Notes: a model not told the origin generated them from the letters alone. A stretch of 63,980 nucleotides of DNA, filler included, from Bonamia ostreae (GCA_040357525.1; 5 parts of 5 records of this genome joined end to end with filler, not necessarily neighbours in it), one strand, 5' to 3'. Shown: positions 236 to 63,600, counted from the first letter of the whole stretch. Translations and numbers: made by a program.

Positions 236-3200
236 ATGGCGAGTAATCATATTAAAATCACAAAACCAGTCAGCGACTACAAAGACTACATTCTAGTTAG
301 AAAAGACAAAATTCCCGTTTTCCTTTTAAAAATCAGATCGTTCTCGTGCATGACCCTAAAGCGCAACTTAACGCAATGGCTATTTCAATAGGAGTTGGCT
401 CCATTTCTTGCAAAAAAATTAACGGGCTCGCTCACTTTATCGAACACGTTTTACGATTTTTATTTAAAAGTTGATATTTCAGGGCGGAAAGAAAAATCAG
501 AGTTTTCAGAAAACGACCTCGGAATTGGGCGGTCTAACAAATGCATTCACCGCCGGCTTACAAACAGTGTTCATGGCAAGCTTCAGAAGCGAAGAAACAG
601 AGAGAGCTATAAGAGAGTTTACAGAAATGTTGTTGGATCCAAAATTTGAAAGTTGTTCAAATTTTAATAGTCAAAATTTGCAGAAACGAAATATAAATTT
701 AAAAGTCGAAGAATCGGAGAAAGAAATAAAAGCGGTGAATAACGAATCGGTAATGGATAAAGACAAAGACGGATGGAGAACAATGCTCGTACTCAAAGAT
801 ATAATTAGAAACAAAACAGATCATCCGTACTCAATCTTCGGTTGTGGCAACTCTGAAACTCTCAAGTTTGCACATTTCCCAATTTCACTAACAATTTACA
901 TTTCTTATCGTAAATTTTCAAATTCAAAAGAGATGTAAAAAGAGAGGATATTGTCGATTTTTGGGAAAAACATTACGCCAAACATCCGATAAGAATAAGT
1001 TTGTATAAAGATTCTTCTATTAAAAACAATAAATTTTAATGACAAAAAACTTTAAAATAACAAATTTTAATATCAAAAAACTAAAAATTTTAATAACAAA
1101 AAACTTAAAAACTAATAATTTTAATAACAAAAAACAAATTTTAATAACGATAAATTGTCCAACAAAACTGTTAATTACAAAAAAAGCACTTTACACAAAA
1201 CAACCGTTCGATGAGGTCATACCTTTTCTGAAACCATTCCTACATCTCCAAACAGAAGACGAACGCATCGAAATCAGCGAAAACCCTTTCGAAGTTCTCC
1301 AAGGATTGCGCATCAACGTCTCTTCCCTCTGCGAAACAAACACTCTCTGCTTCAATTTCCCCATGAAGCCGGTCTACTTCAAACCCACCGCCGGCGACAT
1401 GTACCCTCTCCAACTGCTCATCCAAAACCCCGCGGACCTCGAGGCAGCGCTCGTCGACAAACAGCTGGCCTCTCAAGTCGTGGCCGGTCTCGACGAAAAC
1501 ACCCCGTTCGGCTGCGTCTTCTCGATCGAAGTGCAGTTGACCGAAAGAATGACAACAGAAGAGGGCGTTGCGTCGGTGACAGCGCTACTTTTCAGTTTCC
1601 TCGAGAATCTGAAAAATATGTACAGCGGCGACGAAGGTAAAGAGCGAACAGAGAGGCATTTGGAGTACGCCGCTTATCTGAAGCAATTCCATTTTGACCA
1701 GAGAGACTCTCATAGTGCATTCGACGAAGTAACCGAGATCGTTTTGAACACGGACCGAAATCTCCCAGACCTGAGAAATGTGTTGCAGAACAGCAGCAAA
1801 ATCGTTATAGAAGACGCTCGCGAGAGTTTTTTGGAAGGATTGGCCGCGCTGAATCCGCAGAACGTGTTCATGGTCTTCTCCCGCAAAAATCATCCTGAGG
1901 ATAAGGTTCCCAACGAAGAGAAATGGTTTGGGGCAAGATATGGAGTGGTAAAGATGAATATTCCAACTACTGAGAAATTTAATGTCGGGGCGACTGAATT
2001 GATTCATAAATACGTAGAGCCTACACTTTTCGAGGCACCGGATTACGAAAAACGAGAAAAGGGAGTCTCTGTGTTCATCAAGTTTTTAAAAACGATTTTA
2101 AATTTGCAAAAATTGGTTAAAAAATTTGCAAAAATCGATTAAAAATTTGCAAAAATCGTTTAAAGGAACCGAACGTCATTCAAAAAACTGCTAATTTACA
2201 TGAGAACAAATTTAGTTCTCAATAAAATTTCTTTTCCAGACGGAATGGATTTAAAAGACCTCTTCGTTTTCCACATCGTTGCAGATCTGTTAAACAAATC
2301 GATCTTGCGCGAAATGTCTCATTATTCTCGCATCGGAAGCGGCTTTTCTATCGGAGTTTCAATTGAAGGCTTTAGTCTAACAATGTCCACTTATCCAGAG
2401 CACTTTAGTGAAATGCTAGACAGTGCAGTTAATTATTTAAATCAATTTATACAAATGGATTTTGATGCTGATTTGCAAAAATACATTCGACATTGGTTTG
2501 AACACGCGAAGAAAGATTTGGTTTCTGGCATTGCCAACGAAAAGATCGTCCAGCCATATCAACAATGGTTTCCTATATTTTCATGGTCAAAAATTAATAA
2601 AATTACAAATAAAATTTAGTCAATATTTGTTGGATCAATTGATGCTCGACAATGAAAAGACAATCGAACAAAAATTACAAATCGCTGAAAATTTGAGCTT
2701 AAATGATCTGGAACGAATAAATAAAATCTTCGGTAATAAGGAAAATTCAAAATTTGGAGTCAGAATGCGTTTTGCGATTAAAAATATTATTAAAAATGGA
2801 AATTAGAATTTAAATTTGAAATATTTTAGTTTTACTCGGGAACACTTTTCCGGATTTGCAACATTATGTGGAAAAAGCCTTTCAAGAATATTTTGAAAAC
2901 TCGATTCCTGACGAACAATTATATGAAAGAAAAATAAACTCTTACGAGTCCGACGTTTATTTGCGACAAAAAGCGACTGCGCCTGGCACTAAAAATTCGG
3001 GAGTGATCGTAGCGCGCAGTCTTGGAAGTGCTGATGATGTTTTTAACAAAATTTTCATTTTCGGACTAATTTTGATTTTTTGTGATTAATTTGTAAAAAC
3101 AGTTTTTGCATTTTCGAACTAAAATTTTGATTTTTTGTTATTAATTTGTAAAAACAGTTTTATTTTTTGTAATTAATTTTCAAATACTGTAAAAGTTGCG

Positions 3201-3951: not shown

Positions 3952-3989
3952 GATTCTGTCTATATTAAATTAATTGATCTTTTTCAACT

Positions 3990-4186
3990 AAATCGCTCAT
4001 TCAATATTTTACAAAAAGTTATTATTATTTAATATTCTTATTAAATCGCTCATTCAATATTTCTCAAAAAGTCATTATTATTTAATATTCTTATTAAATC
4101 GCTCATTCAATATTTCTCAAAAAGTCATTATTATTTAATATTCTTATTTAATCGCTCATTCAATATTTTACAAAAAGTCATTATTA
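3990..4186. repeat. Tandem repeat, 53-bp unit, about 3.7 copies
   Basis: aatcgctcattcaatattt... recurs at 3991, 4044, 4097 and 4150, between convergent gene 3' ends. Confidence 0.95.
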
Positions 4187-4224
4187 AATAGTTTTTGATA
4201 GTTTTTCAAAGATTCATAATACAT

Positions 4225-5764: not shown

Positions 5765-7037
5765 TTACAATTTCCAAATAAGAAATAAAGCGAGCGCACC
5801 CATCTCGGCAACATCCAGGAAGCTCCAACTCGACTTAGTATTTATATTCTTCCAACCCGAAACCAATTTTTCTAATCTTCGTATTGCACTTTCAACTTTT
5901 TTCACGTGTGCCCTATCTTCACCCAATCTACTCCACTTCATTTTGGCCAAAAGCTTGTTACAACAAACAACAGCGATTTCCTGGAAGTCATCGTAGCTCA
6001 AAAGTTTTGTAAACACTTTGGCTGTGTAACCTCTACGCAATTTGACGCTCTTTTCGAACACTTCAGAATTGCTGTACATCAGTTCGAGAGTACTCAAGGC
6101 CATTATCTGCGGAATCGCGCAGAACCTAAACACTTTTCTATCTGAAAGCTTCGAAAGGTATTCACTGCAATCTGGAAAATGCGCGATCGCATCACACACC
6201 ATCTCGTTCAAACATTTCAAGCTTTCTGTCGAACCCGGTTTTTTGGCGAACTCTTCGAGTCGATCGAAGTGGCCGCCCCAGATTTCCTTTGGCCACCAGT
6301 TGCGGCCCTCCTCCAAATCTTCTTTGAAGTCTCTAATTATGTTCGTCTTTTGGAGAAAAAGTCCCATCGAATTCGACGTACTCTTGTAATCGCCGATTTG
6401 GAACCGGTTCTCAGAACCCGACAAGATGAAGAGCTTCGTCAGCCCTTCCCCCAAAATGCCAGCCACATAGTGAGTGTACTCGTTGTATTGAGCGATCGAC
6501 TCGACGTGGACCACATTCGAAAACTTGATCATCCCGGAGCCCATTTCTTCTGCGGTTTGTTTTATGACCATTCTGTAAGCGCGCGGCAGTTTATGGAACA
6601 CTCTCAGAACTTTGTCGAGATTCTCGCACAAGAAGCGTTCGTCTTCACTTCCGAATCCGTTGATAACAAACTCGCTGTCTTCGATCAGTCTGTGGAAATC
6701 TCCGAGCAGACGGAGTCTGCGTTTTTCGTCTCCGCAATCAGAGTCGTCCTCTAGTTGTTAGAAAATTATCTTTCATCTGCGAACCTACGGTGTCTAGTGC
6801 GCGCAGCAACAAATAGTACACGCCCACAGCGATGCGCAATTCCGGGCCCAGTGCGCCGATGACGATCGCAAAGCTGCGACTGGTTCTAGCAAGCGCGGCA
6901 AAGCAAAACTCCTCGTCGCTCATGTCCGCGGAGTCTGCCAGCGGCGCGCGTCGATGCCGGGAATGGTTCCAACGCAGACAGAGAAGAGCGATGAACTCGT
7001 CAAGGCGCAACTGTTTAGCGATCGATTCGATTATCAT
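5765..7037 (-). CDS. ERG9: Squalene synthase (farnesyl-diphosphate farnesyltransferase)
   Basis: RTSRSFAIVI; LRALDTVEDD after removing the 34-nt intron 6751-6784; YTHYVAGILG; MGLFLQKTNIIRDFKED..GRNWWP; FCAIPQIMA; C-terminal hydrophobic anchor. Confidence 0.95.
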
Positions 7038-14214: not shown

Positions 14215-14314
14215 NNNNNNNNNNNNNNNNNNNNNNNNNNNNNNNNNNNNNNNNNNNNTTAATTAATTAANNNNNNNNNNNNNNNNNNNNNNNNNNNNNN
14301 NNNNNNNNNNNNNN
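14215..14314. other. Artificial scaffold-joining linker (N44-TTAATTAATTAA-N44)
   Basis: Six-frame-stop 12-mer inside N runs; identical constructs at 28331-28430, 42029-42128 and 55182-55281. Confidence 0.97.
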
Positions 14315-15570
14315 TAATAAATTTGTCGAATTTGCAAATTCTAAAATACGTTCCGAAAGTTCTTCCGTTTTTCCTAAAAGTTGTTTAGTCAAAATCTCAT
14401 TTTTTCGTTTTTCAAATTTTTTGCTATTTTCAAAATCCATTTTTCTTTCTTTCCATTTTTCTATCGCTTTCTCATTGTCCATTTCTGAATATTCCGTTCC
14501 GTCGGGCTAAACCAAAAAGCAAATTTTAAAAACCAATTTATAAAAACAATTCAAAACCAAAATATATCGCGGCCATTCTTTGTCCCATTTTTTGTATTCG
14601 TTCGTCGTTTCCGAACTTTTTACATCATTTTTCTCTTCAATGTACCGAACCATTTGTGCATACAAAAGTCTTTCCTTTAAGGTCAAATCGACCATTTCAA
14701 GTTCCTCATTATTCTCAGAAACTCTATTTTTCCTTTTATTCTCGTTGTCTTCCTTACCGCCCATATAATCATGCTCGATTCCAAAAAGTCCGGAATACCC
14801 AAAATTATTTTTGCCCATTTCATTAACGACCATTTTCTTAATTCCTGAAATTTCGACCCAATCTGTCTCCGCGGTTATCATCTATTTCAGTCGAAATTTT
14901 ATTGTTAAAACACAAAAGTACTTTTACTGTTACAAAAACCTGTTTCAGATTTTCCAGTTGCGACTTAACTTTGAGTTTGGCCAATTCCGGATAGTGCCAT
15001 TTATTCTCAAAATCGACAAATTTCGAGTGCCAATCGATCGTTTGGTTCTTTGTTGCCACGTTTTCGCCGATTTCTGTTACCAAATTTGGATTTTTGTTAA
15101 AGTATTTGACACTTTTCTGGCTCAAAATTTTATCGTAATTTTTTCTACTCGTCAAATTCACGTCAGAATCCACTGCATCAAATGAATTTTGCAAATATTC
15201 GATGTCATATTTTTCTCTCTGCAAATTTTTTTCGTCTTTTTCGCTCATTGTTTTCTCGTTCATTTCTTCCAGTTCTTGTCCGATTTGTCTCAGAGCTGAG
15301 TCTTTTTTGTCGATTTGGAGACTTTCAAGATCGATTTTTATTTTTTCGGTCGATTCTTTGTTGATTTTCGAGTTGTATTTTTCCAGGAAATCTTTTTTGT
15401 TTATTTTTATTGTGTTTTCAGTGCTCTTTAATTGGTAGTCCAGATATTCCCGTGGAAGCTCTTCTTGTTTTAGAATGGCGGTTTTGGGTTGTTTGGAGCA
15501 AAATTTTATGTTCGCGTTTTCTAAATTTGGCGCGTCTGAATTTTCAAATTTGTGATTTTTGTTAATTTTG
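14315..15570 (-). CDS. Hypothetical charged protein, multi-exon, 3'-truncated
   Basis: Consecutive minus-strand ORFs 14838-15263, 14507-14881 and 14267-14482 separated by GTT..AG-like spacers. No family recognised; start uncertain. Confidence 0.5.
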
Positions 15571-15620
15571 GTTATTGAAATTTGTTATTAAAAGGAGTCT
15601 AAAAAGAGTCCGATTTGACG

Positions 15621-16625
15621 ATGTTTAGCGAATATAAAGATTTGAAACTTAATTCTCTAAAATTGGAGAAAATTAATGAAAATGGATTTGATGATGACGA
15701 TCTTGTGAAAAAATTGCATTTTGGTAATCAAATCATTACAGTTTTTTGACGACAAAAATTCAAAAGTACTTTTATAACAATTACCATTACAGCAGTCAAA
15801 AGTACTTTTAAAACAATTACAGTTACAACAGTCAAAATTGTTATAAAATATTATTATCATCGTTATAAAAAATTTTATAAAAAGGGATTGTTATCTAAAA
15901 ACAAAGAAATGACAAAAACAAACATCCGTCAAAAAGAAAAAATATCAAAGCTTAAACGTTGTCTCAAAAGAAACAGAGAAAGCATTGAAATTTTCAAAAC
16001 GAAAATTCGGAAAAGAGAGGAGGAATATGGAAAGAAGATAAACTTTTTGAAGAAAAATTGCGCCAATTTGGAGAAAAGGATTGAAAACAAAAATTCGTTT
16101 AGCAAATTTGGAAATTTCAATGGCGAAAATTTTATAAGATTAATGGCGGATAATATATCTCTGGCGACAGATTCATTGCAGTTGCAGATAAAAGTTGAAG
16201 TTTTGGAAGAGCAACTTGGAAAATTGCTTGAAGAGAACAATGAGAAAAATAACGCTTTCAGCGATATTGTTGAAAAATTGGTGACAAAAATCAATTTTTT
16301 GAAAGATAAAAAAATTTAAAACAGTTTTCAAAATTGCAAAAAAATTAAAGCCGTTTTCGGAAACATTTGATATTGCAAAAAAATAAAAATTTGATATTGT
16401 TAAAAAATTAAAACCGTTTTCGAAAAAATTTGATATCGCTTTGTCATTCTTGAAGACCAAAAGACAAGAAAAAGTATCAAAATATTGGTCTTTTTTGAAT
16501 GTTGTGAGATCGTTTTCATATTTTTCGAACAAAAGTCCTAAATTTTAAAATCGGAACGGGCTTTTTCGTCTTTTATATTGGAAATGCGAATGGAGCGATT
16601 TGAGTTGGAACTGCCTTTGAACTAA
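15621..16625 (+). CDS. Hypothetical coiled-coil protein
   Basis: ATG at 15621 (MFSEYKDLKL), a repeat-containing intron, then the heptad-rich ORF 15888-16319. End approximate. Confidence 0.45.
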
Positions 16626-16900
16626 AAAATTAAAGTTTGAACCAAATTTTGACTGATCGAGTTAATTTTCTTCATGGCCACTGAAGTAGAAAACTGCTTT
16701 TTTTTGACGACAGTTCTTCGTTTTCCACAATTTTTTAAAACCTTTAACATTTTAAACTAATAATCTCGAAAATTGCTAAATATTTAAAAGCTGGTGATAT
16801 TGATTTTATTAGTTACCTTTTATATAATTATTATTTAAAAGCTGAAAGATGATATATTCGATATAACAATTTAAGATATAACAGATATTTAGTAATAAAA

Positions 16901-19900
16901 ATGGCAATCGAAGAGAGTCCAAAAATAGCATATTATAAGCTAATCGTTCAAGATTCCAATAACAAGAAATATTTCACAAAGTACATCGACTTGAAGCGGA
17001 TAACGTTAGGAAGAAAAAAAGCCCATTCCAAAAATCACGTTTGCTTGACCGGAAACAAAATGTTTACTCTAAAAATCTTTTTTAAAAAAGATCGCGAATC
17101 CACGCCAAAATCTTCTTCAGCGAACATAAAAGTTCCAAAATTAGAAATTTTATATATATTCCATTTTTAACGATTTTTAGACGCATAATTTAAGCCATTT
17201 TGTTCTCAAATTTCACATATTAAGCTAAATTTACAAAGAAAAATTCTTTATAAAATGCTTTTCGAAAAATGGCTTGTACGTCGGCGGAAATCTGATATCA
17301 CATGCCCACATTCCTGTTAAACTTGATTCCGCCAGTCTCGTCCAAATCAGTGGCATCTTGATTTATGTAATGTTTCCGAGCATAAAAAGAGATTTCTCCA
17401 AAATTTCTTTCGATCTTCTAAATTCTTTAAATCGCTTTAAAGATCCTTTTGTTAACTTAACTGACTCGGAACCTTCAATCAGTATCGATTCACTTGTGTC
17501 TGCTTCACAAGGCAGCAAAGAAATCGTGTACAAAATTCAAAATTTGAATGTCAAATTGAACGAAAAAATGATAAAGTTGTCAATCGAAGCTTTAAAAACA
17601 ATCGGATTTTTCAAATGGCAAAAAATTTTAGAATTTTTAAATTCGAAAAATGAAAATATTGTAATAAATGACGAAAGTCTGAAATATTGCAAAATTTTGG
17701 CTTTGTTAGTTATAAATGAGATCTGTAAAAAAGCTTTTAATAGCGGCGATTTTGACTTGTCGTCAAAATTGGCATTCATTTTGCGAACTGAAACGAATAA
17801 AGTTTTTTGCCAAATTTTAGAAATTGCTGTTGTCGAATATTGTGAATGAGAAGATTTTGTCCGATCTTTCAAAGTTTGTGGATTTTGATGATATTACTGC
17901 AAATGAGTTTTTATAACAATTTTTACAAATTTTTAATCGAATAATGAACGATTTTTACAAATTTCATAATAAAAAAATGAACAATTTTAGAATTTTTACA
18001 ATCGAATAATGGATAATTTTAAAATCTACTAAAACTAAAGAATTGTGATATTATACCATTTGAACAAATTCATGAAAACAGGAAAATTGACTGATATCAA
18101 AAACTACCAGAAAAATCCACAATTGTCCGTTCAAAACGATTGCGATCTTCTCAAAGGTGTAAAAACCCACAAAACGGAACATTTCGAAGCTATATTGTTT
18201 AATATAAAAACTAACTCAACAAAAGGAACGATAAAACTTTATCATTACAAACAGCGTCAAGAAACGATAAAAACATTAATAAAAACATGTTAAAAGAGCG
18301 ATTCTCAAACTTGTTGGCAATTATAATCAATTTTAACAAAATAAACAACAAAACTGGTTTCGAAGAAAACGAATGGTCAGTTTTAGAACATTATTATTTT
18401 CTGCACGCCCTCGCAAGTTTCGGAATGCCATCAGATAAAAACTGGAGCGATTTTGAAAAAAGCTTTCCAAATCTTTTCCGCAACAAAACGGCCAATTCAG
18501 TCCAAAAAAGAATAAAATTGCTAAAAGAGGAAATTGAAATATGTTTAAAATCGGACAAAAACGAAATAAAAGATTTTAAAAACGGAGATCTTTCCAATAA
18601 GAAAATAGTAAAATTAACTCAAAAAGGAGCACTCAATTTGAAAAGAAGATTTGATTTCTTCAAATTGTTAAGAGATAAAATAAAAACTTTGAACATTTCA
18701 AGTTTGAACTTCGAATGGAGAGAGCAGCCTCCTGTTTGGTGGGATAGTCCAAAAATGGATTTGGATCTTCTAAAAGGGTGTTTAAAATATGGAGTAGGTA
18801 ATTGGGTGAAAGTTTTTTATAAAGAAATTTTGTAAATAATTTTTCGATTATAAAATTTTTGTTGATCGATTAAAAATAAATTTTTGGACTTAAAAAGAAA
18901 ATTTTGTGATATTAAATTTTTCGATTATAAAATTTTTGTTGATCGATTAAAAATAAATTTTTGGACTTANNNNNNNNNNNNNNNNNNNNNNNNNNNNNNN
19001 NNNNNNNNNNNNNNNNNNNNNNNNNNNNNNNNNNNNNNNNNNNNNNNNNNNNNNNNNNNNNNNNNNNNNAAAAGAAAATTTTGTGATATTAAATTTTTCG
19101 ATTATAAAATTTTTGTTGAAAAAGCAAAATTTCAATTTGAAAAACAAAAAGTTGAAAGGAGATAAAAACTATCAATTCTCAAATTCACCCCAAATATCAT
19201 TTCGACACATCCAAAAACTCCTTCTAAACCGATTCATGTCGTTGGGACAATTCATAATCTCCGGAAAAAACAACCTTTCTTCAAATCCAATCAAAAACAA
19301 CTACAAAAACAATTTTTCTTTTTTCCTAAATAATCAATCGCCAAAAATCGCTTCGAAGATGCAAACTTTGACAAACCAAAATTCTCTTCTGAAAATTCAA
19401 AAAACGCCAAACAATAAAACCCAAATTCCTTTTAACTTCAATAACGGCAACAACAAAAAGGAAAATTTCTTATTAAAGCCAAACAAAATTTTTAAGTCGA
19501 TCGATATTCGACCAGTTCCTCAAAACAATTCAATGATTACCCCATCTTTGCTATTGCAATCAATTGGCAACATTGAATTTTTGCGTTCCAATTTTCACAA
19601 CAATTCGTTTTTTGTTCATAATACAAAAGTTATATATTTCCGATTGGCTACAAAACAGTGCGCAAGTACATATCCTTCGTAGATCCGACGAAAAACTGCA
19701 AATACGTAAATGAAATTTTGGATGGCAAGTCATGTCCCATTTTCTCGGTAACATGTGAACATGCGCCAAACAGTCCAATTCAACAAATCCACCCGACAAG
19801 TGCTTGGAAGTTGGTGAATTCAAAAATAAAGTTGGCAAATCCAAACAAAACTGTGTTGGTGCCAATTGACGGGTTGGAACGATTTGGATTGAACGAACCT

Positions 19901-20086
19901 AAAATTCGAAGTTTGATAGATCGACTTCCGAATGTTAGTAAATGCAAGCAATATGGCTCGCAATTTAAAGTCGGCTCTTTTGGATATCCGTTCAATTTGA
20001 ATCCTGTTTCTAATGTTGGCAACAATAGCAGAAGCAAAATGTTGCATAAAAAGAATAATGTTCCGCCGCCGCCCAAGAATTTTTGA
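16901..20086 (+). CDS. FHA + CHD-type SANT/SLIDE-like + FYRN/FYRC domain protein
   Basis: ITLGR...GNKISRIHAKI...SKNGLYVGG (FHA); WSVLEHYYFLHALASFG and WWDSPKMDLDLLKGCLKYGVGNW (resembles CHD C-terminal region); SIGNI...YIFPIGYKTVRKYISFVDPTKNCKYVNEILD and PIFSVT...PTSAW...DGLERFGL...LPNVSKCKQY (FYRN/FYRC). Confidence 0.8.
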
Positions 20087-20189
20087 GTAAATGCGATTTG
20101 TTTATTTGCAAATTTTTGAAATTATTGATTTATAAAAAATGATTTTTTTTTGAACAAATTGAAAACAAATTATTTAAAATTGAAATTGA

Positions 20190-20300
20190 CGTTTTTGAAC
20201 AAATTAATGAAAATAATGTTTTTTGAACAAATTAATGAAAATAATGTTTTTTTGAACAAATTAATTAAAATAATGTTTTTTGAACAAATTAATTAAAATT
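20190..20300. repeat. Tandem repeat, ~28-bp unit, about 4 copies
   Basis: ttttgaacaaattaat(g/t)aaaataatgtt repeated just downstream of the stop at 20086. Confidence 0.85.
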
Positions 20301-20443
20301 GATGTTTAATTAATTGAAAGTATTTAGTCAGATAAAAAATTGTAAAATCCCAAAATAACCAGAAATACGACAAGTTTAAATCCATAATCCGTTTTATAGG
20401 AAAAACTTAAAAATACCCTCGTTTAATAAATACCGTCAGAAAA

Positions 20444-47080: not shown

Positions 47081-47136
47081 TAGCCCAAAGTTAATATATC
47101 CCAAAACCTAAATTAGAAAACTAGTGCGCCTCGAAA

Positions 47137-49118
47137 ATGGTGCAATACAACTTTAAGGAGATCTGCATCATCCCGACTGCATCCGAGTTCATCGACATCG
47201 TCCTCTCCAAAACACAGCGGAAGACGCCCACCGTGGTGCACCGGCGCTACCGGATCAGCAGCATCCGGCAGTTCTACATGCGGAAGGTGAAGTTCTGCGC
47301 CGCGACGATAAAGGAGCGCCTCGGAGGACTGCTCTCCAGCTTCCCCCGCGTAGATGTTTCCTTCGTCACAAGCAGAGCATCCACCCCTTCTACGCGGACC
47401 TGATGCACGTGCTCTACGACAAGGACCACTACAAGCTGGCGCTTGGCCAGCTCAACGCCACCCGAAACGTCGTAGAGAAGATCTGCAAGGACTACATCAA
47501 GTTGCTCAAGTTCTCCGACTCCTTGTACCGCAGCAAGCAGCTGAAGCGAGCAGCGATGGGCCGCATGTGCACCGCGCTCAAAAAACTCGACATCTCGCTC
47601 AAGTACCTCGAGGAGGTGCGCCAGCACCTCTCGCGCCTGCCCTCGATCGACCCGGCCGCGCGCACGTTGATCCTGGCGGGCTACCCGAACGTGGGCAAGT
47701 CAAGCTTCGTCAACAAAGTGTCCAGGGCAGACGTGGAGGTGCAGCCCTACGCCTTCACGACCAAGTCGCTCTTCGTCGGGCACTTCTTCCACGAGTACCT
47801 GCGCTGGCAGGTCATCGACACCCCGGGCGTCCTGGACCACCCGCCGCAGGAGCTGTCCGGCTGCAACACCATCGAGATGCAGGCGGTGACCGCCATCGCC
47901 CACATCCAGGCGAGCGTGCTCTTCTTCGTGGACCTGTCGCCGAGCTGCGAGTACTCGGTGGAGCAGCAGTTGCGGCTGTTCGAGTTCCTCCGGCCGGTCT
48001 TCGTCGCGAAGCCGGTCGTCTTCGTCGCGAGCAAGAGCGACCTCGTTCTTCCATCTCAACTTTAGCGCACGTTCCGCGACCTTCCCCCACGGGAGAAAGG
48101 CTTGATCGAGCAGACCCTCGCCGCGCACAAGATCCCGCTGGTGGAGCTCAGCAACCTCTCCGAGGACGGCGTCATCGCCGCGCGGGACAAAGCATGCGCG
48201 TTGCTACTGGAGGCGCGACTCGCCCGGAAGCTCGATTCCGGGCGCGGCGCGGCGGTGAAGGCCAGGCTCGCCATCACGCGGCCCTCTCCGCGCGACCACA
48301 AGGCGCGACCGCCATCGATTCCCGTCTCCGTGGCCGCGGAGAAGCTGCAGCCGCGGCCGAAGAAGCCGACAGTGCACGAGATGCAGGAGAGGAACGGCGG
48401 AGGCGGAGTCTTCAGCGTCAGTCTGCGCGAGCACTGGGACCTGCGCGACCCAGCCTGGGCAACCCACTCGGTGCCGGAGATCTTCGAAGGGCAGAACGTT
48501 TCGGACTGGATGGACCCCGACATCGAGGCCAAACTGGACGTTTTGAACTAATCCGTAGAAACTAGAGCGGGAAGAACGCGCAGCCGAAGACGTCATGCGC
48601 GACGACTCAGCTGAGTTGGATTTGGACGAAGACCAGCAGGAACTGTACGCCGCCGTGTTCGCTAAAACAGGCGAGATCAAAGCGGAGGCGTTCGTGCGGA
48701 GGACGCAGAACAAGCCGCGTCCAAACAGAGCAAAGTCTGCGGTGAAGGACACGACCGGCGAGATGGCCAGAAAGCTCGCGGCGATCGGCTACCAACCCGC
48801 GAAAGCAGTGAGCCGCATTCAAAGAGACGGAAAACTGTTTTGACCAAAACGTTTTAGAGAAAAGCGCAAAAACAGAGTAAAAACCGACTTTGCGAGAGAG
48901 CGAAACGAGTTGGCGGCGCTGGCAGAAGAACACGGCCTGAGCTTCGAGGTTTTGAATTGCAATCGCAGGAGGAAACAAGGCAGAAGCGCATGAGCAACAG
49001 GGCTATCCGCAAGAGCGGCGCAGGCGCTCGATCCGGGGGCACCGGACGAGTTTTGACCAGCCGACCGAAACATCTTTTTAGCGGAAAGCGTAAGTTGGGC
49101 AAAACTAACCGTCGTTAA
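47137..49118 (+). CDS. NOG1: Nucleolar GTP-binding protein 1
   Basis: [86 protein letters not shown]; five 19-22-nt introns. Confidence 0.97.
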
Positions 49119-49141: not shown

Positions 49142-49350
49142 AATTCTTAACATCGATTAAAATTCAATTCGACATTAATTGGAATTCTTAACATCGATTA
49201 AAATTCAATTCGACATTAATTGGAATTCTTAACATCGNNNNNNNNNNNNNNNNNNNNNNNNNNNNNNNNNNNNNNNNNNNNNNNNNNNNNNNNNNNNNNN
49301 NNNNNNNNNNNNNNNNNNNNNNNNNNNNNNNNNNNNNATTAAAATTCAAT
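49142..49350. repeat. Tandem repeat, 41-bp unit, spanning an N gap
   Basis: aattcttaacatcgattaaaattcaattcgacattaattgg repeated directly after the NOG1 stop. Confidence 0.9.
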
Positions 49351-52768: not shown

Positions 52769-54135
52769 TTATATTTGTGTATCCTCGTTTTTACTTTTGC
52801 TGGCACGTTTCTCAAGACAAAGCAAGTTGAAAATTTGACATTCCGCGGTTAAGTCAAAATCTTCGAGAACGAGCTTCGCCGTTAAAGCAAAAAGTGACGA
52901 ACTCGACGACCGCTCGTGGAAGAACGAGAAATAAAAGTTTATTAGGTCAAATGCTTTTTTAGGCGCTCGGAACTGGCCGAAGTGAGCCACATGGCCAAGA
53001 TGCCCTTGAGGAGAAGCAAGCAAACGATGGATTGGACCAGAAAAGCGAACCCTCCCACGGTGACGATTGCTCTGAACGTCATCCGCCAACCCTTTTGACT
53101 CAGTTCACTTTAAAAACCAGAGCCGCCATCGCTATCGCGGGAAACTGCATTCTCTCGTGCGCCGGAACCGCGCTCGGGAAGACACGCACCCCTTTCTTCA
53201 AATTGCGAAGAGAACCTTTTGGCTCAGGTAGTCAGAGCACAAGAGAGTGAACACCCGTTCGTAGAAAACGGGGTCCACACCGTTGGTGAGCGAGATGAAA
53301 GCGTGCTTCAAGTAGTCAACGCCGACTTCGAGCGCCAGGTACACCAAGGACAGAAGAGCAAATCTCCGCACCCACTCGGCGCCGAGCGAGAAATGGGAGA
53401 GGCTGTGCGCCAGGATCAGAGCCAAGTGGAAGAATACGCCGAAGCGCTCGACGACGTCCAAGAGAACGACTCGCCCCAGCCTCGCCGGACGCGCGTAGTT
53501 CTTGAACACGAAGGACTTGATCTCCGCCATGTTGTTGAGGAAGAACACGCCGAGGACGGCGTCGGTCTTCGAGTTGATGGCGGCGTTCAGCGTCACCAGC
53601 ATCGTCAGTTGCACTGTGGCGTGCACATCGACGTACAAAGCGGCTATGAACAGACTGCGCGCCACATCTCGACTCGGCCGGCGCGTCGGCGCGGCGAACA
53701 AGTCCTTCTGGAAGTACGCGCCGACTGAGCCGAGCAGCGTGTTGAACATCTGCAGGATGCCGATCAACACGTACAGTTTCAAAGTGGACTGTCCGCGCAC
53801 GAGATGGTACGCCTTGGAGACGTTCACATAAGTGAGGACCGCGAAGCCCTGCCAGACCAGCGCGATCGAAAACAAGTCGCGCCAGAAGTCGTCTGAGTCG
53901 AGCTTCAGTGCGAACACGCGGAACGTGCTGACCAAAGGCTCGAGGATGGCGTCGAGGCACAGGACCACTCCGAAGAGAATGGTCTTTTTTTGAAAAATGG
54001 CACCTTTTCGAGATAGACGAAGGTGTAGAAAAAGTCGTCTACTCGTTTTCTGACCCGGCTCATTTCTTCGGGCGAAGCTGGTTCGACGTGTCCCGAGACA
54101 AAGACACTTTCAAAGAAAAACTTGAATAGTGCCAT
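52769..54135 (-). CDS. TAPT1: TAPT1/Emp65 (DUF747) ER membrane protein
   Basis: LEK..LFGVVLCLD, YHLVRGQSTLKLYV, NNMAEIKSFVFK, DVVERF, EVGVDYLKHAFI. 3' end approximate. Confidence 0.88.
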
Positions 54136-54947: not shown

Positions 54948-55447
54948 ATTTTAATCTGTTCTGCAAATTTTTGTATTGCATGTTTATCTGTCATTGACAA
55001 TATCACCCGTACTTTATTTTTTTATCTTATTAATTTCACAATACTAATTGTTCTGTAAAATTACAAGAAATTTTCATTTGGATATCCGTGTAAAGTCTTG
55101 TGCGTGATAATTAACGTTACGGAAAATTTTTGGAAATATTGCACATCGTAAAATTATTAATATTCATATGGCCGCACTCACNNNNNNNNNNNNNNNNNNN
55201 NNNNNNNNNNNNNNNNNNNNNNNNNTTAATTAATTAANNNNNNNNNNNNNNNNNNNNNNNNNNNNNNNNNNNNNNNNNNNNAACATTTTGAAATATGTAC
55301 ATAAAAACAGTTACTAGACGAGGAACTTTTTCTCATCAAACTTTTGGAATTAACTAAAAAAAGAACACAGAACATTAAACCTCCGCTATATAACAAATCC
55401 CGTAAAGTTTATATAATCCAGAGCTTATATTATACCGTTATACTGGC

Positions 55448-58400
55448 ATGGCCACAACGCAACAACAAACAACTGACAGCCGACCAGTGCAAACCTTCTG
55501 GCACCCGCTCCCGCAGTCTTTCTGGGGCAGAAACAGAATCGCCGCGTGGCTCCTGCTCTCCGACTTCGCCTCCCCGCACGCTCACACCTTCCACGAAAAC
55601 GGCATCGACTACGCCGCTTTCGTCAAACTAGACGAAAACGCCCTCGTCGCTTTGAAAGTGCACAGCTCCCTCTGCCGAACGAAGCTCTCTAGGATAATCG
55701 CTCAAGTCCGCAATTTGCCGCCGACGAAGCCTCGCCTCGCGCGCAAGAACTCCGCCCCGATGTGGACGAAGGAAAACGTGCTGGACTGGCTCGACTCGCT
55801 GAGCTTCGGGTGGCGCTTCATCCCCCGCTTCCAGCAACTGGCCATCGACGGCAAAAAACTGGTGCGCCTCGGCCCCAAGTCGCTCGCGATCCTGATCGGC
55901 GTCGACTCGAGACCGCTCGCGAAGCGATATGTGCTCGCCATCAACAGCCTCAGCAAGTCGGGGAACTGGCGGCACATCGTCGACACAGATTTCGACATCG
56001 AGCTGAGCAGCCCGGACGCGTCGCTGGGCTTTTTTTCGACAGCGTACGTGGTTTCGGCGGGGTTGAAATCAGCCGGCGCGAAGTTGAACGAGGCGTTCTT
56101 CCCGTTCAACATGAAACAAATCAACTTGGCCATGTTCACGTACAAAGACGCATTTTTGCGGAAGAAGAAACGCAATTCGATGGAAGCGAAAGAAGTCGCT
56201 TTGTGGTTGAGGCACATGGGCTACGAAAACGAAGTGGTCGAAACTTTTCGGAGGAACGGAGTTGACGGCGTTCAGCTTTTCGATTTGGAGGAGGAGGATA
56301 TCAGAGGTGAACTTGGCATCAGAGACCCGCAAAATTGTCTAAGGCTTTTGTGCGACATCAATTTTTTGAGGTCGTTTTGAAATTTGGATGTGCGAGGAAA
56401 AGCACTTTTTGTTTCAAATTGTTTAAAAATTGTTTGTCATTTTTTGAATTGTCAAAAATTGTTTAAGAAATTGTCGTTTTTAAATTGTTGCCAAAAATTG
56501 CTTAAAAATTGTCGTTTTTGGATTGTTATTTAAAAAATGGTCGATTTTGATTTGCATGTTTAAAAAATTGTTGTTTTTGGATTGTTAAAAATGTCGTCGT
56601 TTTTGTTTAAATTGCTATAATTTGTTGCAAAATTTAAAACCACATTGAAATTAAATTTATCTGTCATTTTTGATTGAAACAACAACAAAAACAAAATCTA
56701 GAGAAGAAATGGGGAAATTGTTTAACATTTCGACGTTACTGAGATTGTACAAAGAAAACTACAAAAAAATATTAAAGAAACAACGCGCAAAACATTCGCA
56801 GCAAATCGCGATCTACAAAGAATCTGCTTTCGAGACAATGAAAGAATTTGAGCCATTTCTCGATATTCTCGGACTTTCTAAAACGTACCCCGATACGTTC
56901 CCAGATAAACACGGCGCCAAAGAAAATCGGCGCAGACGCTCAACTCGCCGCTCAACCGCGCCAAAGAAAAGGGGAAACGAGTTCCATCAGAGCAACGAAA
57001 GTGGTTCGACCGAAGAAAATCAAATTGCGAAAAACGAACATTTTTTTCGCAACATTTTGAAAAAGAACGCTTTCCGGAAAAACACAAATCGCTCTTTATT
57101 CAAAGACGCCTTCGTCCGCGAATGGGTCTCGAAAAACGAAATTTCGCGAGTGTACAAAGACTGCTTCGCGTCCTTTACAGAAAAAGATCTTCTGGAGTCA
57201 ACGGAGGATCAGTTGTCCAAGCGCTGCGGACTGCCCCCGACTGAGATGCGAGAAGTCATGGCGGCCGTGGACCAGTTCCGCATCGAAAACTTTAGGCGGA
57301 GATTGAAAGATTCCGCTTCAAAACCGAACGAGTTCCCGAAAAGGACCACAAAAAACAGTGCGCGAAATCGCAATTTTGCGGCCGAAGAAGCTTTTTATCC
57401 GTCAAAGAATGGCGGGTTCGGCAAGCCAGTTAAAAACGATAGATACAACGCGCTGAAAACGCCACTGCCGTTTTATCACGCAGACGAGTTCAGGGCCGGC
57501 GCGCGCAGCAGCAGTGCAAACATTCCGAACGCGGCAAGAAGCGGCTTCAGAAACATGGCGCAGAAGCGGTTTAAAAGAATGGGCACAGAAACGAAAAGAC
57601 TGTCGGACTTCCTGGCGGTCCAAAGGAAAGACAAAACGAACGGTTCGGCGAATGGCGCCGTTGCATCGCGAAGTTCCGAAAAGAACTTTGCTCGTTCGCC
57701 CGAAATCGCTAAATGGAATCCGCGAGCGCAAAGTTTGAAGAGCGAAGAGAAAGTGCCTCCGCCGCCGCCGAACGACCCGAGGCCGCCTTTCGATGTCGGA
57801 AAATGGTCTAATTCGCATGTTTTTTCGTATCTCAAAAGTTTTTTGCGATCAACGTTTAGACATTTCTGAACTGCGCCCGTTCCTCCAATCGCTGAGGAAC
57901 TTGAACGGCCGCTCTCTCCTCGACATCGCGGGACGAAAATCTTTCGGGGCTCAGAAAAATTTTGATTTGAAATGTCTTTCGGTGCTCAAAGGCGTTTCGA
58001 AAGCGCTTTCGTATCGCGATTTGCAGAACACGGCGGTGGAGACTTGGACCCCGTCGAACGTGCAAAGTTGGTTCGAAATCGACACTGATTTGCCTAAATA
58101 CGGCGAACTTTTCAGACAGAAAAACATCAGCGGTCGTCTGTTAGTGCAATTGACGCACGAAATGTTATTGGGAGATCTCGGCATCAATCTCGCTGAAAGG
58201 GAGCGCATTCTTGTGAGTGTTCAGAAATTGATGTTATTTTTTGCAAATATTATTTTTGCATTAAAATTGTTGTTCATTTTTTTTTGCATTAAATCCGACA
58301 TCAAATTAAGTTCCAAAGCAAAACCACAAATCAATCTGCCCCAAACTGGTTNNNNNNNNNNNNNNNNNNNNNNNNNNNNNNNNNNNNNNNNNNNNNNNNN

Positions 58401-59692: not shown

Positions 59693-60536
59693 TTAAAAAT
59701 CGGCCAATTCGGCTTTGCGTTTAAGGTACCGCTCGCGGGCGGCGTTCAAATCCTTTTCACAGTTGCGCCTTGCGCCAAAATTCTCCTTCTTCCTATCGAA
59801 CGTTTTGATTTCGGGAAGACCATATTTTTCTTTCCATTGCGACTCCTTCGAACCCTTTCTTTCCTGATCCTTCGAAACCAGCTCCTCCGAAACCGGTTTT
59901 GCCTTCGCAGAAGCTTCCCGCTCGAAGTCTTTGTTTTCACTTTTATTTAATTTGGATTCGCCTAATTTTTCCGCGAAAAGAGCTTGTTTGAAGCGAAGTT
60001 CGCTCTCGACCGCGTTGTTCTTTTCGGTCAAGTTCTTTCGTTCCTCCTTTTCGATCTGACGCGCGAGTTTTCTGCGCTGTTCTAGGACATTGCGGTACGC
60101 GGGAGTGACCAAGACTGGCTTGTCTTTGAACAGGAAATCGTCTTTTCCTCGCTCTCGAATTTGCGACCTTTCGTAGGCCATGTCGTTTTCAGCTTTTCTG
60201 CGTTCGAGGTTTTTCTTTATTTTCGCAATGTACTTGGACTAAATTGCCAATCTCAACCTTTTTGGGGCCATTCTCTTTCTTGTCCAGCGCATTCGCGGTT
60301 CTTTTTCTTTCCAGCGACTCATAAACCTCGTCGTATTGGAACACAGTGCTGTCTTGTTCCAGCGCTTCGACGCAATTACGTCTCGCCTTTTGCAGCTTTT
60401 TGCCCGCAGTGCCGATTTTGCCGCCATCCGCCTTTCCGGACGAGCCGGACTTTCGTTTCAAAGCCGACTCGACGTTGGCCGCCGGTTCGGCGGTTTTCCG
60501 TTTGAAACTCATTCTGAAACCACCCGCTTTAGACAT
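59693..60536 (-). CDS. NSRP1: Nuclear speckle splicing regulatory protein 1 (CCDC55/DUF2040)
   Basis: ALEQDSTVFQYDEVYE, SKYIAKI, FKDKPVLVTPAY, AARERYLKRK; one 19-nt intron. Confidence 0.85.
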
Positions 60537-60617
60537 TCGACAAACTCTCAAAACTTGCAAATTTAGGCAAACTCGCTAAACACCAAAAGCCTAAAACAAA
60601 AACAAAACGAAAGTCCG

Positions 60618-63600
60618 ATGCACATAAAGAAAATAACCATCGAAGGCTTCAAATCGTACAAGGACAAGACCGAGCTCGTCTTGGACAAGGGCCACAACAT
60701 AATCGGTTCGATCGCAACTATTTTAGTCGGGAAGAACGGCTCCGGCAAGTCCAACATTTTCGCCGCGCTGCAGTTCGTCCTCGGCGACACCTTCACCAAT
60801 CTCTCCGCCGAAGAGAAGTACCGCCTCATTTACGTTTTCCCGCCAATTTTAGGAGGACAACGACAAGCGCCACTTGGCCGCCGCCGTCGAAGTCGTCTTC
60901 GACAACAGCGACAAGCGCTTCCCGCTCGCCTCCGACCAGCTCGAGATCAAGCGCGTCCTGGGCCCGAAGAAAGACGACTACTTCGTCAACCGCAAACACG
61001 CGACGTTTCCTCTCTCACCTAAAGCAAGTCCGCCGTCGACGGGCTGCTCGAGAGCGCCGGCGTCGCGCGCTCGAACGCCTATTTTGCCGTGCAACAAGGC
61101 AAGGTCGACCGCCTCATCCGCATGAACGACGCGCAGCGGCTGAGCCTGTTCAAGCAGATCGCCGGGACCAGCGTCTACGAGGCCAAGCGCGGCGAGAGCG
61201 TCCGGCTGATGCAAGACACCGCGCGCAAGAACGCCCAGATCGAGCAGATCGTCCGCGGCATCAGAGCGAGGCTGTCGGAGCTCGAGGGCGAGAAGAGCGA
61301 GTTGCTGGACTTCCAGCGCAAGGACGGCGCGCGGAGGACGATCGAGCGCAGTGTCTATCTGCGCGAGGTTTCGCTTCAAAATGGCAGAAAGAAAAATGCG
61401 CGGCGCGGTTGGAAGTCGCTTCGCGGAAGAGGCGGAGCGCGGAAGTAAATCTTGCCGAGAGCGTGTGCGAAGCCGAGGCGGCGGAGAAGGGTCGGAAGGA
61501 AGCGCGCGACGAACTCGGGCGGCTCGGCGCGGCGGGCGAAGGGCTGTCGCAGAAGATAAAGAGGAACGGCGCGCTCCGCAGAAGGCAGAGCGCCAGTCTG
61601 GTTCGGCTGGAGGCGAGGCGCGATTGGGCGAAGGAAGTGGTGTCGAAGAGCGAGAAGCGTCTGGCGGCGCTGGGAGAGTTTTTGGAGGTTGGAAAAGACA
61701 ATTTTAGTCGATGGAGAGGCGGATTGACGCAGGAGCGGAGAAGAGCAGAGAAATGGAGCGGTTTGTAGAAAAACTGGAAGACGAGAAAACAGCTTTGGCG
61801 AAAGAGCTTGGCCCTAAAAAACAAAAATTGGAGTTGCCAAATTTTATTTAATTGCAAAAAATTATCGAAAATTGCAAATTTATTTTAATTACCAAAAAAT
61901 TTATCGAAAATTGCAAATTTATTTTAATTACCAAAAAATTTATTTTAACTGAAAAAATTTATCGAAAATTGCATTTTTTAATTGCAAAAAAATTGTCGAA
62001 AATTGCAAATTTATTTTAATTATCAAAAAATTTATTGCAAATTTATTTTAACTGAAAAAATTTATCGAAAATTGCAAATTTATTTTAATTATCAAAAAAT
62101 TTATTTTAACTGAAAAAATTTATCGAAAATTGCAAATTTATTTTAATTATCNNNNNNNNNNNNNNNNNNNNNNNNNNNNNNNNNNNNNNNNNNNNNNNNN
62201 NNNNNNNNNNNNNNNNNNNNNNNNNNNNNNNNNNNNNNNNNNNNNNNNNNNAAAAAATTTATTTTAACTGAAAAAATTTATCGAAAATTGCATTTATTTA
62301 ATTGCTAAAAATTTATCGAAAATTGCAAATTTATTTTAATTATCAAAAAATTTATCGAAAATTGCAAATTTATTTTGATAAAAAAAAAGGTTTTTGCAAG
62401 CAAAATGTGGAAGAAAAGATATGTTTTCGACCAAATCGGAAAGAGACGAATTCTTGCTCAGACAAGTGAGCTCGAAAAAATTGTTGATTGAAAACGATAT
62501 CGCCAGAAAAGCATATCTGTCTAACCAACTGGACAAAATCGACTCAAATCGGATTGCGAAAAAAGGCGAAACAATCGAAAACGAAATAAAGCATCTTCAA
62601 AGCGCAATCGAAAAAGACGACGCAAAATATGTCAAAGATCTGAATTCGCGAAACAAATTTTCGTTGCAAAGAAAGTTTAACAATTTTCAATTTCAGGAAA
62701 ATTTGGAAAGAGTTGGACAAAGTGAACTCCGAAACATTAACAGTCCGCAACGTTCTTTCGAGAGCCGAATCGTCGTTGCGATATTCGATGGCCAAAGTTT
62801 TGAATCGCCACAATTTTAGGGCCAATACGATTCGATAAGGAAAATCAAAGAGTCCACCTCTGAGGGTTACAGAGGTTGTTTAAGCGAGTTGTTTACTCTC
62901 AAACACCCCAAATTCGCAAAATGCGTCGAGAAAACAGCCGGAAGCAGGCTGTTTTTTCATGTTGTCGACGACGACGAAATCGCCGCTCGACTTATCGCCA
63001 CAATCAATCGTCAAAAACTCGGAAGTTAAAACTTATTCGTGCAATTAATTGATTTAAAAATCTTTTTGTAATAAAATGCCAAAATTTTGTTTTGATAATC
63101 AAAAAAATGTTAACTTATTTTAAAATTCGAAAAATTGAAAAAAGGAACGACGGTAATGCCATTGAACAGATTGAATGCGCCGAAAGAACTAAAAATTGCC
63201 GAGGAAGACAAACAAGACGTCATCCCAATGTTGAAACAAATCGACTTCGAAGAAAAGTTCCGCCCGGCTATGGCGCAAATCTTTGGCAAAACCGTTATCG
63301 CCCGTTCTATCGACATTGCTTCTGCTTATTCCATTAAACATAACGTCGATGCCATCACTTTAGACGGTTATTCAAAATCTTATTTTCAATTTTTGACAAA
63401 ATTCGTCATTTCGATCAAATTTTTACCCAAATTTTACAAATTTGTCATTTCGATTAAATAATTTTAATATTGAAAGGCGACAGAGCGTCAAAAAGAGGTT
63501 ATTTGAGCGGCGGCTATAACGAAGGCAAAACCTCGAGATTGGAAGCGATTGCCGCGATTAAGAAAAACAGCGATGAATTGGAAACTTTGCTGAAAAAAGC

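Follow-up and report, generated by a model that had tools for sequence, protein, structure and literature searches.

The window analysed here, a stretch of 63,980 nt from the oyster parasite Bonamia ostreae, carries a recurrent kilobase-scale pattern in which segments of the top strand begin C-rich and end G-rich, and this gradient of GC skew is the subject of the present analysis. The window is a chain of five separate scaffolds in arbitrary orientation, placed in order of decreasing length (14.2, 14.0, 13.6, 13.1 and at least 8.7 kb); as read from the sequence, they are joined at 14215-14314, 28331-28430, 42029-42128 and 55182-55281 by N44-TTAATTAATTAA-N44, a linker with stops in all frames between two runs of N. 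Adjacency across these joints is artificial and, the scaffolds being separate, skew patterns were judged only at scales below ~14 kb. Inside the scaffolds there are six runs of 100 N, four of which interrupt AT-rich tandem arrays. Over the whole window C and G are nearly equal in number (11609 and 11597), leaving it unskewed overall.

Genes recognised by their Pfam domains on the plus strand are an M16 peptidase, a glutaminyl/glutamyl-tRNA synthetase, a FYRN/FYRC protein, SLC12, dynamin, NOG1, SAM-domain proteins and an SMC protein, and those on the minus strand are squalene synthase, a MYST acetyltransferase, coatomer beta, SPC22, DUF747 and NSRP1. A coding map of 31.1 kb combined Pfam-aligned stretches and exons spliced in contigs from a putative RNA run, X3, with a codon hidden-Markov pass and long open reading frames (ORFs). 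It is approximate, with codon-position composition that looks normal and zero in-frame stops. The X3 contigs include spliced joints with GT..AG or CT..AC ends, consistent with gene strand and reading frame. Two other runs, X9 and X4, consist of short DNA contigs and refer to the scaffold at 14315-28330. The X4 contigs, which come from another sample and give some depth in 30/30 bins, match this scaffold save for a few differences, and an assembly artefact was ruled out on these grounds. The published assembly comprises 12.24 Mb in 9705 scaffolds with 33.3% G+C, and the word 'skew' is absent from the sections of that paper considered here (PMC11069148). Apart from a match to a database paper, our literature search found no account of GC skew in Bonamia.

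Recurrence of the C-rich to G-rich gradient

The initial annotation had drawn attention to the pattern with ten counts in 60-nt windows, and all ten (10/10) were reproduced exactly. In the plus-strand M16 (insulinase) gene the counts are C22/G7 at 1321-1380 and C5/G16 at 1921-1980, and in a minus-strand gene C11/G3 at 14521-14580 and C7/G16 at 15481-15540. Around a point of reset they are C9/G18 at 18721-18780 and C15/G2 at 19261-19320; the plus-strand SAM gene gives C27/G10 at 55561-55620 and C10/G19 at 56281-56340, and the plus-strand SMC3 gene C22/G10 at 60781-60840 and C9/G28 at 61621-61680. These hand-picked windows are extremes of the distribution. The 300-nt skew profile does rise in many stretches from about -0.4 to about +0.4, and the mean amplitude is modest, from -0.08 to +0.11 over quintiles.

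Tests that do not depend on the eye bear out the recurrent segments. Segmentation was made blind to skew, at AT-rich troughs defined as 100-nt windows with a GC content of at most 0.20 or with N, and yielded 56 troughs, between which lie 41 segments measuring 300 nt or more. GC skew was higher in the right half than in the left half in 31 of these 41, with a mean difference of +0.12 (binomial p=0.0015, Wilcoxon p=1.3e-5). Viewed from the troughs, G-C in the 300 nt to the left exceeds that in the 300 nt to the right in 38/54 cases, a flank bias that fades within about 0.3-0.8 kb. A segmentation-free measure agrees, as the local slope of GC content is negatively correlated with GC skew (Spearman rho -0.29 at w=300), a value reached by 0/1000 circular shifts, with a negative correlation in 5/5 scaffolds. 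Sign switches of the skew co-locate with base composition, upward switches lying on GC peaks and downward switches on AT troughs (rho 0.18-0.33; 0/1000 shifts). The autocorrelation of G-C stays positive up to 300 nt, turns negative over 500-900 nt and returns to positive values at 2000-2200 nt, beyond the bounds given by shuffling, which corresponds to a skew wavelength of ~2 kb. Taken block by block, 7/24 coding blocks rank among the highest 5% of 1000 shuffles and 0/24 among the lowest 5%. The amplitude of the gradient is not significantly related to GC content (rho -0.26). The observation itself is confirmed.

The resetting described in the initial annotation stands in part. Skew does drop at the spacers, but raw G-C rises as steeply as it drops, and the abrupt look is due mostly to the low G+C of the spacers. 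A true sawtooth asymmetry was dropped, the raw rises and drops being equal in size. The repeating layout is an AT spacer, a C-rich half, a G-rich half and another AT spacer, with no true sawtooth.

Site classes, nucleotides and gene orientation

The gradient survives a control for amino-acid composition. At third codon positions the skew goes from -0.19 to +0.12 and rises in 22/30 segments; at first positions it rises in 20/31, and second positions show almost no effect over trough-bounded segments. Four-fold degenerate sites read in gene sense give quintile values of -0.17, -0.04, -0.04, +0.04 and +0.14 (n=2266 G/C sites, p=8e-5), with C-rich and G-rich halves equal in size around a near-zero mean. 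If coding blocks are taken as the unit, four-fold skew is -0.136 on the left and +0.115 on the right, with 17/22 blocks rising; with trough-bounded segments as the unit it runs from -0.125 to +0.036, with 16/23 rising. For the left and right halves of blocks the values are +0.03 and +0.13 at position 1, -0.13 and -0.04 at position 2, -0.12 and +0.07 at position 3, and -0.14 and +0.12 at four-fold sites. Along the blocks, two-fold sites shift as well, C/(C+T) falling from 0.60 to 0.49 and G/(G+A) rising from 0.31 to 0.42. In the subset validated by Pfam or RNA, four-fold counts are G188/C238 in left halves and G301/C282 in right halves (p=0.022). The bias appears to reach ~100 nt beyond the coding blocks: skew in their 100-nt non-coding flanks is -0.134 to the left of the block and +0.055 to its right (22/32 blocks, p=2.4e-5), and strict no-ORF positions within these flanks give -0.153 and +0.135 (p=0.016).

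These results bear on the simplest alternative, that no special process is involved and the pattern reflects protein composition (for example purine-rich coiled coils or charged C-terminal tails) together with windows picked by eye. Several observations are in line with it. The four-fold gradient is absent from the minus-strand gene at 14350-15535 and from NOG1, only 7/24 blocks are individually significant, and in the SMC block the half rich in G is rich in A too and hence purine-rich (AT skew +0.2 to +0.3); a coiled coil is presumably to be expected there, after the N-terminal SMC domain. Some of the strongest hand-picked amplitudes are indeed partly protein composition, as in the minus-strand gene at 14350-15535. 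Against this explanation stand the unbiased all-segment tests (31/41; rho -0.29), the gradient at four-fold sites and in the 100-nt non-coding flanks, and the lack of any block significant in the reverse direction (0/24). As a full account it is very improbable and already largely refuted.

The bias involves G and C and leaves A and T nearly untouched. On the outward strand, read from the block edge inwards, C outnumbers G (3475 vs 2864, z=7.7), whereas A and T are balanced (3798 vs 3773, z=0.3), and every C-containing dinucleotide is enriched on that strand, making the bias independent of context. No AT-skew gradient was found within segments (rises in 16/41, not significant) or at four-fold sites, and the GC slope is not significantly correlated with AT skew (rho +0.06). 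C-to-T deamination as the sole cause is excluded, as AT skew fails to mirror GC skew. The interiors of the spacers are different in that the left half is richer in T and the right half richer in A in 39/55 cases (p=0.0035). The initial claim that flanking introns can be A/C-rich on the left and T/G-rich on the right is therefore only partly sustained: AT skew is flat inside segments, and the impression stems from the spacers themselves, with their T-richer left and A-richer right halves.

Densely spaced replication origins, at which forks would switch direction every 1-2 kb and leave a leading/lagging mutational asymmetry, were one of three causes offered initially, and are the least likely of these. 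With the yeast polarity, in which A and C are over-represented on the leading strand, the AT spacers (G-rich to the left, C-rich to the right) would be origin-like, and human skew jumps upward at origins (PMC3459929, in the sections considered). As with such jumps, switches in Bonamia occur at fixed sites and independently of gene orientation. Replication jumps, however, extend over tens of kb to Mb with small amplitude and involve TA as well as GC skew (PMC3459929), whereas the Bonamia pattern has a wavelength of ~2 kb, is restricted to G and C with A equal to T, and is tied to coding blocks. The local amplitude of 0.1-0.5 is far above that of yeast replication skews, and the gradient, besides tracking coding blocks, is missing from several of them. 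The T-rich-then-A-rich layout of the spacers may be reminiscent of AT-rich origins. Spaced at ~2 kb, fixed efficient origins would exceed the origin density of yeasts by an order of magnitude, and such a wavelength does not fit this explanation. We regard it as scarcely credible.

Gene orientation was initially used as an argument, namely that a polarity shared by plus-strand and minus-strand genes is not simply transcription-coupled. This argument is invalid, as the profile is its own reverse complement. Reverse complementation flips both the order and the sign, so that a profile running from -x to +x is unchanged; a symmetric profile therefore gives the same top-strand picture for genes on either strand automatically. 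It follows that orientation cannot separate transcript-linked causes from strand-symmetric causes at the DNA level, and that the arbitrary orientation of the scaffolds is irrelevant. Read in gene sense, the minus-strand hand-count example has C16/G7 on its 5' side and G11/C3 on its 3' side, and third-position skew rises in 15/22 segments with plus-strand genes and 6/7 with minus-strand genes. The RNA-like strand of long coding blocks tends to begin C-rich and to end G-rich.

Long AT-rich introns and the unit of the gradient

Resets had been placed at long AT-rich repeat introns, and the validated introns agree with this. Twelve introns of at least 100 nt could be used, seven validated by RNA joints and five by Pfam domains of one gene on both sides; the skew falls across 11/12 with 200-nt flanks (p=0.006) and across 10/12 with 300-nt flanks. 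Across eight RNA-validated introns of 20-71 nt it falls in only 1/8 (150-nt flanks), 3/8 (200-nt flanks) and 2/8 (300-nt flanks).

The plus-strand FYRN/FYRC gene has three consecutive internal exons or exon groups, each with its own gradient from C to G. The internal exon at 17229-17906 (GT..AG joint 17906>18041) has G50/C66 and then G61/C34 over its halves at all sites, and G6/C13 then G4/C1 at four-fold sites. It is followed by a 134-nt AT-rich intron (17907-18040, GTTTTT...CTAAAG, RNA joint), at which the skew resets from +0.29 in the 200 nt on the left to -0.17 in those on the right. The next internal exon (18041-18811, joints 17906>18041 and 18811>19152) runs from G51/C66 to G72/C48 and ends at a 340-nt AT-rich intron (18812-19151, X3 joint) with the strongest reset of the window, from +0.35 to -0.53; this intron contains a 77-nt tandem repeat (18817-18969 by Tandem Repeats Finder, TRF) and the N run 18970-19069. 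An exon pair with FYRN/FYRC domains (Pfam) follows at 19152-20083, its members separated by a 23-nt intron (19607-19629), and again goes from C to G, with G41/C106 then G91/C88 at all sites and G6/C8 then G13/C7 at four-fold sites.

In the same gene, CT..AC joints were found at 17865-18108, 18189-18287 and 18769-19170, which excise nearly the same AT spacers as the GT..AG joints 17906>18041 and 18811>19152. Read on the minus strand, one of these joints shows the splice context usual for the organism. The joints suggest spliced antisense transcripts, if weakly, their flanking matches being only ~30 nt long.

The complementary situation is found in the minus-strand gene at 14350-15535, whose RNA-supported exons (14350-14506, 14558-14881 and 14940-15535, with CT..AC joints in X3) and two short introns (14507-14557, 51 nt, and 14882-14939, 58 nt, both from X3 joints) are spanned by one gradient with no reset. 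Skew there rises from -0.50 to +0.29 (G59/C135 then G105/C103 at all sites), and four-fold sites show no gradient (G8/C7 then G11/C19). The next intron of this gene, 879 nt long and AT-rich (15536-16414, minus strand, CT..AC joint 15535>16415), is G-rich along its whole top strand. What carries a single gradient is thus the exon, or the cluster of exons, between AT-rich introns or spacers of at least 100 nt, and not the gene.

Further loci illustrate the same layout with varying strength. At the left of the window, an AT-rich spacer and putative intron (966-1205) with an A/C-rich tandem repeat (TRF 1022-1148) has G-C of +10 in the 300 nt on its left and -51 in those on its right. The internal M16 (insulinase-like) coding block that follows on the plus strand (1202-2080, frame from ORF 1033-2139) grades from C to G, with G93/C135 then G112/C87 at all sites and G16/C32 then G14/C11 at four-fold sites. 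The minus-strand squalene/phytoene synthase block (5787-7029, Pfam SQS_PSY 1.9e-35) is C-rich at the left of the top strand, meaning that the 3' side of the gene is G-rich in sense (G107/C168 then G153/C172). A clear gradient is seen in the plus-strand SAM-domain block (55406-56377, Pfam SAM_2), which has G111/C169 then G144/C108 at all sites and G25/C39 then G29/C17 at four-fold sites; the AT-rich spacer to its right (56406-56700, TRF 56449-56587) is G/T-rich, with G-C of +35 on the left and -9 on the right.

The strongest gradient belongs to the first block of the SMC3-like gene (60567-61800, plus strand, Pfam SMC_N), where third-position skew runs from -0.59 to +0.62 and four-fold counts from G20/C58 to G45/C31. 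Its C-rich phase begins at the gene start with no AT trough between it (left-flank GC 0.44) and its divergent neighbour, an NSRP1-like gene (59697-60567, minus strand, Pfam NSRP1_N) in which a synonymous gradient is absent, third positions being flat and four-fold counts G21/C15 then G20/C20. On its right lies a long AT-rich SMC intron (61812-62430, plus strand) with minisatellites detected by TRF and a 100-N gap, flanked by SMC_N upstream and SMC_hinge downstream, at which skew resets from +0.53 to -0.01. NOG1 (47123-49000, plus strand, identified by Pfam and by 100% identity to Bonamia ostreae MHBO_000086), has a GC content of 0.55-0.72; its gradient is weak over all sites (G255/C315 then G304/C268) and absent from four-fold sites (G62/C65 then G53/C50).

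Genes of the window differ widely in base composition, with G+C of 0.58-0.62 (windows up to 0.72) in the dynamin, NOG1, DUF747 and SMC blocks and 0.28-0.40 in many others; high values are found at 42800-44700, 47100-49000, 53200-54100 and 60600-61750, in contrast to 14300-42000. This spread suggests a second compositional process.

Validated introns start with GTTTTT and have an A-rich run just before the terminal AG. These features, together with resets confined to long introns, bear on selection at the RNA level. Such selection could act through splice-site context across long introns and exons, with a G-rich exon end and U-rich intron start forming a G/U-rich 5' site and an A-rich intron end and C-rich exon start forming an A/C-rich 3' site, or by pacing the polymerase once it has passed a long intron, a version of the CTP-limitation proposal made for fungi. 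In its favour, the four-fold gradient is stronger over coding blocks than over trough-bounded segments (right values of +0.115 and +0.036), the SMC gradient begins at the start of the block with no AT trough, and the hypothesis of adaptive avoidance of C has been published for fungi (PMC3315797, in the sections considered). On the other hand, third-position skews of 0.4-0.6 over hundreds of nt reach too far for splicing enhancers, and the effect is independent of context. C-rich and G-rich halves of equal size are predicted by a symmetric process and not required by selection on sense RNA. The pattern also occurs in a first exon (SMC) and in 3'-terminal exons (squalene synthase and the gene at 14350), where one splice site is missing, and many exons have no gradient. 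Known splicing-coupled strand asymmetries of exons and introns, reviewed in PMC10030826 (Touchon 2004; Zhang 2008, in the sections considered), resemble the Bonamia case in that composition bias is positioned by splice sites and exon and intron skews differ; they are constant in sign or short in range, whereas the Bonamia skew changes sign over several hundred nt and is present at synonymous sites. Altogether, we consider selection at the RNA level decidedly unlikely.

Some further features of the introns and spacers may be recorded. Minisatellites with units of 21-103 nt lie in long AT-rich introns and spacers, each array differing in sequence (1022-1148, 3989-4186, 18817-18969, 20192-20307, 36309-36502, 38697-38997, 49142-49237, 56449-56587 and 61838-62376). 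Some are strongly one-sided, either G/T or A/C; that at 38697-38997 has 0-3 C and 10-13 G per 100 nt. Spliced contigs reveal spliceosomal introns of only 20-31 nt (16537-16556, 19607-19629, 22030-22057, 22262-22292 and 22906-22925), typically starting with GTTT(T) and with an A-rich run preceding AG, and frame changes in the dynamin ORF (43378-44334) and the NOG1 ORF (47125-47400) suggest additional very short introns. The 879-nt intron of the minus-strand gene encloses, on the plus strand, an ORF of 189 amino acids (15750-16316) in AT-rich DNA, with a lysine/glutamate-rich, coiled-coil-like translation. No Pfam match was found for it at E<=1e-5, and X3 cover is absent over 15719-16186; it could be a nested gene. 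Amino-acid-permease/SLC12 matches form two plus-strand runs, at 20930-23629 and 24209-25635, the first matching profile positions 85-247 and the SLC12 C-terminal part and the second restarting at position 1, which may represent tandem SLC12-type genes or a mis-join. Relative to the scaffold at 14315-28330, X3 has 12 single-base differences, three of them C/G transversions (15266 and 15351, reference C and X3 G; 17528, reference G and X3 C), and among X4 differences C>T and G>A dominate with 5 each; these differences are too few to use, and unpolarised.

Fungal parallel and origin of the gradient

A closely similar pattern is known from fungi. McLean & Tirosh 2011 (PMC3315797, in the sections considered here) described opposite GC skews at gene ends in almost all unicellular fungi, the coding strand favouring C at the 5' end and G at the 3' end with A/T nearly flat. 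The fungal effect is similar at four-fold and non-degenerate sites, extends into promoters and 3' untranslated regions, alters amino-acid usage, correlates only very weakly with expression and was detected in 33% of C. albicans genes. Bonamia shares the polarity, the minor role of A and T, the similar size at four-fold and non-degenerate positions, the effect on amino-acid usage and the occurrence in many but not all units, with 7/24 blocks under a similar shuffle test. It also has skew in 100-nt non-coding flanks, but strict non-coding sites within its segments are flat and the AT troughs lack G/C polarity. The unit differs: in the fungal study (PMC3315797) one gradient covers an entire gene, mostly without introns, from its ATG to its stop codon, while in Bonamia the gradient restarts after long AT-rich introns (11/12) and several cycles fit into one gene. 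The lineage differs too, Bonamia belonging to Rhizaria, Haplosporida. What is known is the fungal pattern, and what is new is its exon-scale, intron-reset version in a rhizarian parasite. Searches for literature on exon-level GC-skew gradients and for literature citing the fungal gene-end skew found nothing relevant, and Ressayre 2015, which deals with intron-structured GC content, leaves skew untreated (0 occurrences).

The causes proposed for fungi are mutational regimes of the phases of polymerase II and adaptive C-avoidance under CTP limitation, and a bias towards C on the non-template strand close to start sites is described for fungi and invertebrates; within the sections considered, orientation, reverse complement, antisense and recombination have 0 mentions and introns are mentioned once (PMC3315797). 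For Bonamia, the most likely explanation is a neutral asymmetry of G/C substitution at AT-rich boundaries, linked either to transcription or to breaks and their resection. That the gradient is the B. ostreae counterpart of the fungal one, a neutral G/C substitution bias at AT-rich boundaries that is likely transcription-linked, we hold about as probable as its negation; a transcription-linked origin taken alone is a substantial but minority possibility. The process would be a strand-asymmetric bias of G/C mutation or repair and not selection on proteins, by which the strand running 5' to 3' away from an AT-rich boundary would gain C over G, with an effect fading over ~0.5 kb. In the transcription-linked version, the bias towards C that fungi and invertebrates show on the non-template strand near promoters would act from both sides, which requires that RNA polymerase II, in sense and in antisense, find in the long AT-rich spacers an open, promoter-like or pausing site. 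Antisense transcription is hinted at by the CT..AC joints that lie at AT spacers within the plus-strand FYRN/FYRC gene.

Start-site GC skew offers a partial parallel, in that its sign switches on a GC-rich peak, at kb scale and symmetrically about a point, and the polarity of its C-biased type is the one required should AT spacers act as bidirectional start sites. The upward switches in Bonamia lie mid coding exon and not at promoters, and the boundaries are AT-rich introns and not CpG islands.

Several points weigh against the transcription-linked, fungal-type reading. The antisense joints cross the spacers rather than begin in them, and the fungal gene-end model of polymerase phases alone fails to predict resets at internal introns. 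G/C polarity is absent within the AT troughs (27/55), and strict non-coding sites inside segments are flat (left G481/C474, right G368/C344, p=0.62; 2/7 segments). The four-fold gradient, present in the SMC, SAM and M16 blocks, is absent in dynamin, NOG1 and DUF747 as well as in the minus-strand gene at 14350-15535, and the pooled four-fold signal depends largely on a handful of blocks. The evidence base is 64 kb on five scaffolds, and the genome-wide effect size could differ; the gene models are approximate and home-made, and the status of run X3 as RNA is putative.

The second version of the neutral asymmetry takes the minisatellite-bearing AT spacers as recurrent sites of double-strand breaks or fork collapse, at which 5'->3' resection would leave the 3'-ending strand on each side single-stranded, with damage there bypassed in a manner that changes C to G. 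The top strand should then be G-rich on the left flank of a spacer and C-rich on the right, fading over ~0.5-1 kb. At human meiotic hotspots, Hinch et al. (Science 2023, PMC7615360, in the sections considered) reported C>N and A>N changes on the forward strand left of the break and their complements on the right, on the 3'-tailed strand within 1-2 kb, with C>G peaks 700-800 bp off the hotspot centre. Polarity and scale fit, the human pattern being point-symmetric and predicting a G-rich left and C-rich right flank as around the AT spacers. The human data, however, are de novo mutations that include A>G at PRDM9-defined sites (PMC7615360), whereas in Bonamia equilibrium composition is seen and the spacers lack G/C polarity.

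Much of the evidence already given is compatible with breaks and resection, which are strand-symmetric by construction: the opposite strand bias on either side of troughs (38/54) with its decay over ~0.3-0.8 kb, the resets at long AT-rich introns and not at short ones, the tandem repeats and assembly gaps located in the spacers, and the shifts of two-fold sites along blocks (C/(C+T) downward, G/(G+A) upward). The T-rich left and A-rich right halves of the spacers (39/55) would be expected if the 3' tail also loses A. Other evidence opposes it. There is no AT-skew gradient at four-fold sites, the spacers lack G/C polarity, and the strict non-coding sites in segments are flat. The strongest C-rich stretch (SMC, four-fold G20/C58) is 900-1400 nt from the nearest trough, with the unskewed NSRP1 gene in between, and the G-richness of the left flank and the C-richness of the right flank of the same spacer are uncorrelated (rho 0.01-0.19, n=51). 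When anchoring at spacers was compared with anchoring in exons, the amplitude correlations were both near zero. None of the papers considered documents meiosis or recurrent breaks in B. ostreae. We consider a break and resection footprint rather unlikely. Much the same low probability is given to the more general possibility of a strand-symmetric footprint at the DNA level, not specific to any phase of transcription, on open, AT-rich, nucleosome-poor sites, for example through single-stranded DNA at breaks and resection with a C-to-G repair bias. Chromatin-phased mutation, the remaining cause offered initially, is also conceivable.

The finding means that a little-studied compositional law of fungi recurs in a distant eukaryote, a rhizarian oyster parasite. 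The restart after long introns is not predicted by initiation and termination phases of polymerase II or by CTP-limited pacing as published, and the symmetry of the profile makes orientation uninformative on transcription versus a cause at the DNA level in fungi too. Should the footprint prove to be one at the DNA level, the gene-end skews of fungi would be the same orientation-independent process anchored at promoters and terminators, and the distance to the nearest open AT-rich site would shape exon composition and amino-acid usage in both lineages. A bias of mutational origin would measurably shift both the choice of synonymous codons and the usage of amino acids along exons, and models of codon usage and gene prediction for AT-rich parasite genomes should accommodate the skew gradient.

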